Shown here: positions 12,601 to 15,600 of the stretch, in pieces | How the letters are laid out: each line of letters begins with the position of its first letter | How positions within the stretch are numbered: the stretch's first letter is position 1 | From: Prorocentrum cordatum | Lineage: Eukaryota | Direction: 5' to 3' | DNA length: 64,000 nt | NCBI GenBank assembly: GCA_963575745.1 | Contig: CAUYUJ010000195.1 | Span: 1 to 64,000 of the forward strand | The notes under the pieces: model-generated | What the model was told of the DNA's origin: nothing | The model's input: the letters and a program-made list of their open reading frames with translations, nothing else | The model's database searches: none | Translations under genes and position numbers: made by a program

Positions 12601-15600
12601 AGGGAGGAGGGGGGATATGCGGAAAAAGGTGTTCGAGCATCAGCGCCCTGAAAGGCCACGTAAGAGAAGCACACAACATCAGGGATGCCCTCTCCAATAT
12701 AGTCATCACCAATCAGTGCCCGTGGTGCCTCTCGGGGTTCTCGACGAGGAGGGTGGCCCTAGATCATTGCGTGCGTGCATGTCAAAGACACGGAGTATGC
12801 CACGTGGATAAATCAAGATGGTCCCATCCGATCCTCCCCCCAGAGACGCTGGTCTGTAACATTTGTGATCAAGAATTCCCTGACATCGCGAGTTTTCACC
12901 AGCACGCCCGCTTCTTCTACTTCGGCCCAGACATTGTCGTGGGCGCCCATGATGAAGGGATGGAGGATCGGCAAGAGAGGAGCAGACGGCAGCGGGAGTG
13001 GAGACGTTCCAGTAGCAACATTGCCGAAAGGCAAGGGTGGCAAGAAGGCTCGCCAGCAAGGAAATGCAGCAGACGAAGACATCGTACAGGCGGTGATGGC
13101 GGTGCAACAGCTCAGCCTCAGGACAGCAGCCGTCGCCAGAGATCTATCAAATATCGTCGGAGAGTTCTGGCTCGTGCCGTCAGGGCACGACATCATCAAA
13201 GCAGCAAAAGAGACGGGCTCGAGTTACAACGAAAAAGTGCAGTCTCTAGGAAAAGGGCATGGACTAGGGCCACCGTACCTCCACGTGTCGGTGGCGGCGA
13301 CCGAGGCGATGGCGACGAGTCTGGACGAAAACGAGCAAGAGGAGGCGCAGGCGAAGATCAGCATCACGCAGTGGGTAGAGCAGGCGGAGTCGGAGGCGGG
13401 GCAGGCGTTCGTAGGAGAGACGATCAGAATGTTCAAGGTGAGCGACACGTTCAGGGCGGACGACGAGATGGACGACGGGAATCGCATGACGAAGGTTATG
13501 TTCGCCCTCAGCCCACACTACGACATCACGACGGCCATGAAGCAGATGAAAATCCAGCCGACGGGGGCCAAGCCTCCGACGGAGTTCAACGGCGTGCGGC
13601 TCCTCCAGGCGATGGGAGTGGCGTTGCACAAGGCGGGAGGGCACAGGCCAGTGGGGAGCGGGCCGAAGGAGGAGCTAGACAGGGTGGTCGAGCGCCAGCT
13701 GAAGGCGCTGCAGAAGAAATGATTGTGATCATAGGCAGTCGGTCCGAGAGAGAAGCAGAGTTTGTAGCAGCAATGCAGTCAGACCCCATGGCCAAGATAG
13801 CTACCGACCCAGTTGCAATGACTAGACTTAGGCAAATGCATGCTGAAGGGTCGCAGCACGCTAAGAGACTTTTAGAGAGAGCAGAGATTTTTCGTTCTAA
13901 ATTTAGTGCAGAGCTGAGAAAGCTAGAGAATGAGTAGAGGGCGTGTTTCCTTCTGTCGAGGGCCTACTGGTTGGCCCTGGTAGGCGGGTCCTGGCCCGTG
14001 TGGCTCCGTCGACCAGGAGACGGCTGGTGGGCTGACGGGAGAAGGCCGATGCCCTGCCCAGCCTCGGCCGCGCGCTGCCAGGGAGCAGCAGCCGCCAAGG
14101 CCACCCCATCTCCGCCTCTTCCCCCCCCCCTCTGAGAGTGGCCTCCCTCCTTCTTCTTCTCCCTCCCGTGTGTGCTGAATGCGGGTGCCTTCCCGCTCCA
14201 CGGGGCACCCTCCCGCCTCAGCGAGGCAGAGGGCCGCCCTGAGCATGCGCCCGTGCGAGTATAGATGATGCAGGGCGCGTGAGAGATCCACGCAGGGGAG
14301 CGCGAGGCGCTGTAGCAGCAGCTGGACATGCACCCCCGAGCGCAGAGCCGAGCCGAGCCGAGCCTCCTCCCCCTCCCCCCCCTCCTCCTCCTCCTCCCCC
14401 GGACTCCCGCCCCTGCTCCTGCCCCCCCACCCCCTTCCGAGGGTGACAGCCGCGCCCTGCCTGGCGCCGCGCATGCCTGGTGGAGAGGGCGAGGGAGGCA
14501 ACGGAGGCAAACGGCAGGCGAGTTGAGCAAGACACGATGTCGGTTTCACTGAGATGTGGCTTCTACCACTCGACCGGAGGATCTGGAAGGGAACCTTTCC
14601 CTTTCCCTCCTACTCGATGTCATGCTCAAATCAAGCCTGAGATTACTGCACCTGCCTGGCGCCAGAATGTTCAAGAACATGATCAAATGAAGTAGTGCAT
14701 TCGACCGCTAGTGTGGCTGCAACTGCCTAAGCAGCGCTAGGCGAATGAATTGTGCACTGCCTTGTGGGGAACTTCCGCTTCTCTACCACTTCCATGAATG
14801 ACTCTGAAGCGGGTTCTGCCGCTGAAATGCCGTAGCCGCTGAGCTGCTTTTCGAGCTCGCTGAAGACACATAGTACTCTCGAAACGTATTCCCTTAGGTG
14901 CGAATTTCACCAGAACTGGATCAGGGTGCGGATCCTACCGCCTTGAACTGTTTTACGCATTGCAACCAAAACTGGGGAAACTGCAGAAGAAACCTCATAA
15001 TCTAATATTTGCTTTCTGCCCCAGCTGCATCACGACCTACCTGGCCGTCGCTGTCCTTCCGGACCATTTTACTCTGTTGTAACGCTTGGATCCCATCGCT
15101 GGCCCTGGCGAGCTGCTTGCTCAACGACTCGATTATGAGGCCTTGTTTGGTATCCTTCAGCGGCTTCAGCCTGACGGGGGGAGATGTCTCTTTGTAATTT
15201 TATTTCTACTTACATTGTTTGCTCAAGACTTGCCGCTCTAGCGAGTCTGATGCAACATCTGATGCGGTGCTCAATTGCTCCACTGGTGTTGCCTGTCGCG
15301 CCTTCCCGAAGCAGGCCGCTTCCTGCTACGATCCTTCTGGTCGGGCCCCCTTCACGTCGACCTCTTTCTTGAGCGGGCCTTCTCTTTCCGCCACTTCGAC
15401 GTCGAGCACTCCTTTGGACGGTCAATATCGTAACACCTCTTCGATGTCAACCGCTTCCTAGATCAGTCCTGCCCGTCTTTGGATTGGTTGTTGTGTTTTC
15501 TCTGCCCGTTGGACGTAAGTGATGAATCCCTGCTTAGCTTCACAAGCGATTTACTGGCTTCCTGATGCTTTGACCTTGGGGCTCTAGGAGGTGTGGGAAG

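Follow-up and report, generated by a model that had tools for sequence, protein, structure and literature searches.

What does a reading frame that lies wholly inside another one contribute to a retrotransposon, and how could it be translated? LINEs, or long interspersed nuclear elements, are thought to have simple coding plans, with either one open reading frame (ORF) or an ORF1 followed by an ORF2. The question is raised by a LINE of the dinoflagellate Prorocentrum cordatum (contig CAUYUJ010000195.1, assembly GCA_963575745.1), which lies in a stretch of 64,000 nucleotides (positions 1 to 64,000 of the forward strand; hereafter the window). This stretch carries a single non-LTR element (one without long terminal repeats), on the plus strand, and no second copy of any part of it. 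Its ORF2 encodes an apurinic/apyrimidinic-type endonuclease (APE), a reverse transcriptase (RT) and zinc fingers, and past the fingers a 257-aa ORF in the +1 frame (12949..13722, plus strand), here called ORFx, lies wholly inside ORF2 and stands out by its homologues, its predicted fold and its shared position in related loci. We think it fairly probable that this 3′ part of the element places ORFx over a linker of ORF2, that both frames are maintained, and that translation of ORFx would begin at an AUG of its own, carried by a shorter mRNA.

Results

ORFx belongs to a conserved protein family

The +1-frame ORF spans 12763-13722, and translation from its first ATG, at 12949, yields the 257 aa of ORFx. 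Codon-position bias is strong, with a GC content at third codon positions (GC3) of 0.755 and a frequency of T at these positions (T3) of 0.054. A full HMMER scan covering 1.84 billion representative proteins recovered 248 relatives at E<=1e-3 (counted as clusters at 50% identity), of which 38 passed a limit of 1e-10 and 5 one of 1e-30. The homologues are for the most part free-standing proteins of 200-320 aa (~250) that cover the query end to end; P0003, for example, has 260 aa and matches residues 3-254 of ORFx. Two further P. cordatum proteins, with 91% and 59% identity to ORFx, came from a profile search. The alignment of the family (A1, 43 sequences) displays an N-terminal WR motif, at residues 5-6 of ORFx, and besides it a basic, Gly-rich and weakly conserved stretch. 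The motifs KLxL..Q..R, AGxxY...V..GKGHGLGPPHxH, FRxKxxY and GG....GxAPxxELERxVExxLxxLQ are also present, and the protein ends within a few residues after the last of these.

Structure prediction and fold comparison, both proposed in the initial annotation of this locus, gave a confident fold but no clear match in the PDB. Using A1, AlphaFold2 modelled ORFx with a predicted local distance difference test score (pLDDT) of 87.3 and a predicted template modelling score of 0.79; residues 1-38 are predicted to be disordered and are followed by a long helix (39-70) and an alpha/beta domain. Foldseek found nothing at E<=0.001 for this model in either the PDB or BFVD, VIA-align reached a best Z of 7.3 over ~50-60 aligned residues comprising a helix hairpin alone, and the best score against the ESM Atlas (0.83-0.84) was below a meaningful level. 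At the sequence level, a profile search of the family against PDB sequences returned none, and Pfam had no match to ORFx, including any of the LINE ORF1 signatures (coiled-coil/RRM/C-terminal domain, CCHC, PHD, esterase). Across the 43 members of A1, no Pfam family was shared at E<=0.1; ten families were hit by one member each, with a best E of 0.018. ORFx is thus a real, independent and conserved gene of no known fold or Pfam family, and the proposal that the 257-aa ORF is a genuine accessory gene is borne out by its 248 relatives, their conserved alignment, and the confident model.

Thirty homologues were looked up, 20 of which derive from ENA, Logan or JGI contigs and 10 of which carry an organism name. 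Half of the named ones belong to P. cordatum (three of these five are also entered under Polarella glacialis), one is a Symbiodinium sp. CCMP2456 protein labelled ‘mocs3’, and four are from a EukProt set that bears the name of a green alga, Pyramimonas sp. CCMP1952. Peptides from that set (P0008, P0011, P0014, P0015, P0155, and P0165) are 58-94% identical to the element, apart from P0015 at 36%; the set may be mislabelled or impure, or else the family may extend beyond the dinoflagellates. One further entry, P0069 (P. cordatum / Polarella glacialis, 669 aa, named as S1 motif-containing), resembles ORFx in its N-terminal part (residues 61-186), after which come DYWVDG.WD.DGLRDD repeats; it would be a domesticated fusion or else a chimeric gene model.

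Related loci share the position and frame of ORFx

A metagenome search with an 8-sequence ORFx alignment matched five stretches, four of which (L001-L004) encode a relative. Two of these come from different metagenomes and count as one lineage, L002 being a near-identical part of L003 (2 differences in 1766 bases). In all four loci, representing three lineages, the ORFx homologue begins 12-35 codons past the final zinc finger of ORF2 and occupies the +1 frame, and the ORF2 frame is open across it. The most complete example is L003, in which an intact frame of 1767 codons comprises the C-terminal end of the APE, the RT, and three C2H2-like fingers, crosses the ORFx homologue (3342-4034, +1 frame), and then continues for a further 1271 nt. 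In L001 the homologue (270-1109) is likewise traversed by an ORF2 frame that comes from the zinc finger and ends 137 nt further on. The zinc-finger region of L004 is 34% identical to that of the window (E 4e-19); its +1-frame homologue begins MAWRLG and has an in-frame TAG where the relative P0103 has Lys, and the ORF2 frame remains open up to the contig end. ORFx is only 25-36% identical between lineages, yet the +1 offset is identical. The likeness of ORF2 between lineages ends at the zinc fingers, and the overlap products and tails are not alike.

Gene models of P. cordatum point the same way. The 91% and 59% identical proteins, P0159 and P0160, join pieces of ORF2 (APE, the G-patch region, and a segment ahead of the fingers) to ORFx, and because these patchworks contain both, the copies from which they derive must share the gene order. 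The suggestion that ORFx always sits 3′ of APE, RT, and zinc fingers therefore holds in every relative with visible DNA or a gene model. That ORFx might instead be the ORF1 of a neighbouring copy was also considered and rejected, as L003 has 1.6 kb past ORFx without an APE. Searches for the locus confirmed none of 11 pattern matches in viral contigs and none of three in prokaryote genome contigs. The 3′ flank of L003 terminates, at 5305-5636, in tandem repeats of a ~22-nt unit resembling aagggccttataaggcccttaa, which may be the 3′ tail of the element.

Both frames are maintained across the overlap

Within 12949-13722 the window has no stop in the ORF2 frame and 14 in the third frame, so that ORF2 passes through the overlap (12948..13718, plus strand) as 257 codons encoding an Arg/Gly-rich, basic, low-complexity linker. 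The initial annotation had cautioned that this openness might simply reflect the scarcity of T at the third codon positions of ORFx. We compared the observed stops with those obtained by shuffling the codons of each ORFx in 5000 trials, a null that retains amino-acid, codon and third-position content. For the window, the expectation was 4.10 stops in the ORF2 frame, which was open in 0.68% of the trials (P 0.0068), and 14.0 in the third frame. The corresponding expectations for the ORF2 frame were 4.34 in L001 (P 0.0052), 7.80 in L003 (P <0.0002), and 3.09 in L004 (P 0.0206), each against none observed, and the third frames of these loci had 13, 8 and 3 stops against 15.2, 11.0 and 2.5 expected. 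Together, the four lineages have 0 ORF2-frame stops where 19.3 would be expected (Fisher combined P 3e-7, with the P of L003 floored at 1/5000), and third-frame stops match the shuffle expectation. As a control, the identical off-frame in single-coding parts of ORF2 had 22, 39, 79, 3, and 4 stops, against expectations of 20.3, 45.9, 75.4, 5.2, and 3.8, respectively. Scarce T3 does not account for the open frame, since shuffles that keep it predict 3.1-7.8 stops and none was seen in any of the four lineages. In the ORFx of the window, moreover, none of the 14 T-ending codons precedes AA, AG or GA, with which 29.6% of the codons begin.

As judged from sequence, the overlap is a case of true dual coding, in which ORFx shows conservation at the protein level and the ORF2 frame is under selection against stops. 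Because that frame is kept open beyond chance, ribosomes must read it here often enough for selection to act. The linker of the window has 19% R and 17% G and an isoelectric point (pI) of 11.3, and the overlap products of the ORF2 frame in the four lineages range over 16-19% R, 13-20% G, and pI 10.8-11.5. Stop avoidance is the sole signal that these comparisons establish for the ORF2 frame, and ORFx, the ordered and widely conserved product, looks like the older partner, with the ORF2 extension as a putative overprint.

Translation of ORFx from a shorter mRNA is the favoured route

Some 4 kb of ORF2 lie upstream of ORFx and no ORF2 stop precedes it, which excludes both scanning and reinitiation on a full-length RNA. 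Among the three routes considered (a dedicated mRNA, frameshifting, and cis-splicing), we lean towards a separate AUG on a shorter spliced-leader (SL) mRNA as the probable one. ORFx would be translated from this AUG on an mRNA sharing its 3′ end with the full-length RNA, produced by SL trans-splicing a few tens of nt 5′ of the AUG. The product would act as the second, ORF1-like protein of the element in its ribonucleoprotein. ORF2 might be kept open so that termination falls near the 3′ end of the RNA, or because a basic tail adjoining the fingers is of use; more speculatively, termination near the 3′ untranslated region (UTR) could serve cis-preference or avoid a 1-kb 3′ UTR.

Several features are consistent with this route. 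The first ATG past the upstream +1-frame stop lies 0-3 codons ahead of WR in three of the lineages (the window, L001 and L004), and in L003, which is without WR, the first such ATG opens the homologue. The coding strand of L001 also contains a 21-mer (210-230) that resembles the dinoflagellate spliced leader, DinoSL, at 17 of 21 positions and ends 39 nt 5′ of the ORFx ATG; none of 300 shuffles contained a match at 4 mismatches, the best having 6. The DinoSL sequence used here agrees with that in the available text of PMC2606063. Relics of the leader mark DNA copied from leader-capped mRNA in dinoflagellates, according to the accessible portions of PMC6050394 and PMC12014239, so the L001 relic is what would be expected if an SL-ORFx mRNA had once been copied into the element. 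A 3′-biased transcription has also been reported for other dinoflagellate LINEs (PMC5890265, in its available parts). Of the routes named in the initial annotation, which were frameshifting, reinitiation, and SL trans-splicing, reinitiation thus falls away and SL trans-splicing gains one indirect support in this relic. The SL-like 21-mer of L001 lies inside the ORF2 frame, where it reads DPVAMQAQ, and the ORF2 tail of the window (13719-13937) likewise contains DPVAM, which may be coincidence.

A number of observations weigh against this interpretation. The DNA context of ORFx is drawn from four lineages in all (the window, L001, L002/L003, and L004), and the relic occurs in one of them: no DinoSL match at <=6 mismatches was found in L002, L003, L004 or the element of the window. 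A pyrimidine tract and AG ahead of the AUG scored no better than background (fractions 0.058, 0.329, 0.094, and 0.497). In 31 homologues a pattern search located W[RQ] ahead of the core, but among the 21 whose predicted N-terminus reaches past it, a Met lies within the five preceding residues in only 4, from which it follows that the start position of ORFx varies or is uncertain. The composition of the linker is what the ORFx codons alone predict, its Arg content and net charge being within the range of the ORFx-codon shuffles (except the Arg count of the window, P 0.031), and therefore supplies no reason for the openness of ORF2. The tails of ORF2 past the overlap, of 72, 46, and 423 aa, are mutually dissimilar. 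A search for SL-derived peptides at the N-termini of homologues yielded one weak case, P0054 (‘MCSHLGS’), where about one would be expected by chance over all residues.

The alternative that survives best, though we regard it as unlikely, is that ORFx lacks a start of its own and that a +1 frameshift just past the zinc fingers would produce a fusion of APE, RT, zinc fingers, and ORFx, while unshifted ribosomes would make an ORF2 protein with an Arg/Gly tail. It accommodates the clear maintenance of both frames and the +1 offset that is identical in all four lineages, and it would also suit the variable position of the predicted Met in the family and the ~4 kb of upstream ORF2 that exclude scanning to the ORFx AUG on full-length RNA. 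The +1 frame is moreover open for 62, 12, 19, and 55 codons before the ATG in the four lineages, which leaves room for a shift; the same figures mean that the shift in L001 would need to fall within 12 codons. A comparison by eye of the four upstream contexts revealed no shared slippery motif, and the ATG stands 0-3 codons before WR in all three DNA loci that bear WR. Most database homologues are free-standing proteins of ~250 aa, which also argues against a fusion, though gene callers would yield such proteins either way.

A more improbable alternative is cis-splicing, in which a GT-AG intron (12433..12985, plus strand) would be removed in an alternative isoform, dropping the zinc fingers and joining ORF2 (...DIFLP) in frame to residue 13 of ORFx. 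The window does have a GT at 12433 and an AG at 12984-85 in the right phase, and P0159 and P0160 share the place of the donor (...DIF[LI]PG). These two models, however, are patchworks that skip most of the APE and the whole RT core, as ab initio predictions across repeats typically do, and the acceptor of P0160 lies elsewhere (~13021 vs 12986). Splicing would also remove the conserved WR at residues 5-6, which lies upstream of the acceptor. We conclude that the intron is probably an annotation artefact, and a shorter mRNA with its own AUG remains our preferred explanation for ORFx.

The 72-aa ORF is a tail of ORF2

The initial annotation had placed a further gene after ORFx, in an inverted architecture of ORF2, ORFx, and a 72-aa ORF (ORFy) coupled through ATGA. 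The TGA of ORFx (13720-13722) does overlap an ATG (13719-13721) that lies in the ORF2 frame and is followed by 72 codons to 13937, and this stretch (13719..13937, plus strand) is continuous with ORF2 and specific to its lineage. The ATG at 13719 exists because ORFx ends in AAA-TGA. At the end of ORFx, L001 reads aaaTAAaga and L003 gtaTAGacg, and the ORF2 codon at that point is ATA (Ile) in both, so the stop-start overlap is absent in both of the other lineages that show the ORFx stop; L004 ends earlier. The GC3 of the tail is 0.44, vs 0.755 in ORFx.

The one relative of similar length found for ORFy is P0165, an 89-aa peptide of the Pyramimonas-labelled EukProt set that is 73% identical, shows a gap of 26 residues where ORF2 stops, and extends into the 3′ UTR of the window to 14051. 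No longer relative was found, and a pairwise BLASTP comparison with P0016 gave nothing. A plan of three consecutive genes, with ORFy made by termination-reinitiation at the ATGA, would be compatible with the presence of this motif at 13719-13722 and with the predicted P0165 peptide, which begins at the same Met. It is nonetheless very improbable, as ORF2 enters ORFy without a stop and its openness is selected, as ATA stands in place of the ATG in L001 and L003, where ORFx ends in TAA or TAG, and as the sole relative of ORFy is one 73%-identical copy. By its sequence context, ORFy is a lineage-specific C-terminal tail of ORF2 rather than a third gene, the ATGA being a by-product. The accessory gene at the 3′ end thus stands, and the order ORF2-ORFx-ORFy does not, as ORFx is embedded in a longer ORF2.

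The least probable account of all is a chance opening of ORF2 due to few T3, or compensating frameshifts that make ORFx a C-terminal domain of ORF2: it can draw on the T3 of just 5.4% in ORFx and on a copy already broken by a TAG, but T3-keeping shuffles predict 3-8 stops per lineage where four lineages have none, the +1 offset recurs in lineages that are 25-36% identical in ORFx, and the homologues begin and end as free-standing proteins. We therefore return to ORFx as a gene of its own within a maintained ORF2 frame.

Organization of the element and ORF2 in the window

The coordinates, frames and ATGA given in the initial annotation were reproduced from stop-to-stop ORFs and stop counts. ORF2 consists of two such pieces in the same frame on the plus strand, 8853-10193 with the APE part and 10194-13937 with the RT, zinc fingers and tail, parted solely by a TAG (10191..10193, plus strand) between APE and RT; apart from this codon, the element is open from 8853 to 13937. 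The APE part is taken from the Met at 9006 (9006..10190, plus strand), and an in-frame ATG at 8877 lies ahead of it. The endonuclease is at the N-terminal side of the RT and was recognized by two Pfam families, Exo_endo_phos_2 (27.4 bits, at the cut-off of 27.4; E 3.3e-6) and Exo_endo_phos (24.9 bits against a cut-off of 24.5; E 2e-5). At the site of the TAG, the 91% identical P. cordatum gene model P0159 reads Glu (IKLELK-E-YTAALK), which means that the copy in the window carries a nonsense mutation at 10191; with this stop inside ORF2, the copy is dead.

The remainder of ORF2 before the overlap (10194..12948, plus strand) contains a G-patch-like motif, a divergent RT, and C2H2-type zinc fingers. 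The RT matched RVT_1 below the cut-off (E 0.0025, 18 bits vs 29.6), and an FMDD motif is visible in the translation; comparison of the RT part with PDB sequences gave no match. Homology to the ORF2 of L003 extends over 725 aa (blastp E 4.5e-29 and 2.3e-21). The zinc fingers, near 12590-12910, matched zf-C2H2_4 (E 2.1e-4) and zf-C2H2 (E 1e-3), both under the Pfam cut-off, and Pfam detected no RNase H in ORF2. A G-patch-like motif between APE and RT (~10720-10920; ORF2 residues 176-241 after the TAG) scored under the cut-off as G-patch (E 6.1e-4) and G-patch_2 (E 6.5e-3). The P0159 copy has kept this motif, which LINEs do not usually carry. When ORF2 was compared pairwise by BLASTP with two long gene models, P0136 and P0016, the sole match was a thumb-like segment of 17 residues (E 0.019).

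Only triplet microsatellites (7600-7741, 8204-8286, and 8625-8850) lie 5′ of the Met at 9006, in agreement with the earlier description of repeats alone upstream; the absence of a 5′ ORF1 is a statement about this copy and not about the family. The 3′ UTR starts at 13938 (13938..14051, plus strand), where the P0165 peptide aligns through to 14051. The family is a diverged repeat in P. cordatum, as gene models lie on copies 91% and 59% identical.

Other features of the window

A relic of the dinoflagellate SL with 19 of 21 matches lies on the minus strand at 15938-15958, where none is expected (100 shuffles), and suggests a retroposed gene reading leftwards to the 3′ flank of the LINE. It also marks the host as a dinoflagellate, and the named homologues of ORFx place it close to Prorocentrum. 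The region 40001-44000 is AT-richer, with a GC content of 0.42-0.44 vs ~0.6 elsewhere and a GC skew of +0.37 to +0.43, and a 948-codon open frame without a Pfam match is present on the minus strand at 39375-42221. An assembly gap of 100 N occupies 62584-62683.

Discussion

It is possible, and we put it forward tentatively, that these loci represent a dinoflagellate LINE family with a virus-like plan, comprising an ORFx protein of ~250 aa with a new fold, an SL-capped subgenomic mRNA, and an ORF2 that stays open to the 3′ UTR. Searches of full-text literature, with subscription journals and Repbase outside their reach, brought up neither a LINE gene described as overlapping or following ORF2 nor the ORFx family. 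If the proposal is true, this would be the first non-LTR retrotransposon described with a long pair of overlapping genes on the same strand, and the first with a subgenomic-mRNA strategy. LINEs would gain a new coding plan from a conserved 700-840-nt overlap that encodes a folded second protein, and retrotransposon biology a new family of accessory proteins; there would also be a testable tie between SL mRNA processing and retroelement gene expression. The ORFx family is common in marine sequence data, as its 248 clusters at 50% identity illustrate, and in dinoflagellate annotation it is shown as patchwork host genes (P0159, P0160, and one ‘mocs3’), which its recognition would clean up.

A parallel in coding plan is common among viruses, in which same-strand overlapping genes arise by overprinting and are read from subgenomic or spliced mRNAs. 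The overlap described here is like these in being of ~700-840 nt on the same strand, with one ordered and conserved product and one of low complexity, and unlike them in being carried by a cellular retrotransposon. By analogy, the downstream frame probably needs an mRNA of its own, as in the viral cases. With regard to the protein, two-ORF LINEs encode a smaller second protein, such as the ORF1p of L1 and those of other types, beside the RT protein. ORFx has a basic disordered N-terminus followed by a folded domain, as an RNA-binding partner would have, and it differs from these proteins in its place at the 3′ end inside ORF2 rather than 5′ of it. Because its N-terminus is basic and disordered and its place in the retroelement is fixed, the comparison suggests that ORFx may be an ORF1p-like, nucleic-acid-binding partner of the RT protein.

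Two retrotransposons can be compared with the element in domain organization. In L1Tc of Trypanosoma cruzi, the C2H2 fingers with their basic flanks have RNA-binding and chaperone activity, the job of ORF1p in L1, according to the accessible text of PMC2805920. L1Tc as described there has one long APE-RT frame without an upstream ORF1 and C2H2 fingers at the 3′ end of its single ORF, a plan that this copy of our element may share; its candidate C2H2 fingers are followed by a basic stretch, here Arg/Gly-rich with a pI of 11.3, which recalls the C2-L1Tc protein, a likeness from which we do not claim kinship. The overlapping second gene has no counterpart in what that text describes for L1Tc, and, unlike in ingi/L1Tc, RNase H was not detected here by Pfam. 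The second comparison is with the Symbiodinium element SymbioLINE-Dnmt (de Mendoza et al. 2018, PMC5890265), which the available parts of that study describe among LINEs that are without a poly-A tail and whose transcription is reported to favour the 3′ end, namely ORF2 and the 3′ UTR. Both are LINEs of dinoflagellates that possess an APE-RT ORF2 and have gained an additional protein gene. In SymbioLINE-Dnmt, as presented in those parts, this gene encodes a DNA methyltransferase and lies upstream as ORF1 without overlapping ORF2, whereas in the element described here it encodes a protein of no known family and is embedded in the 3′ part of ORF2.

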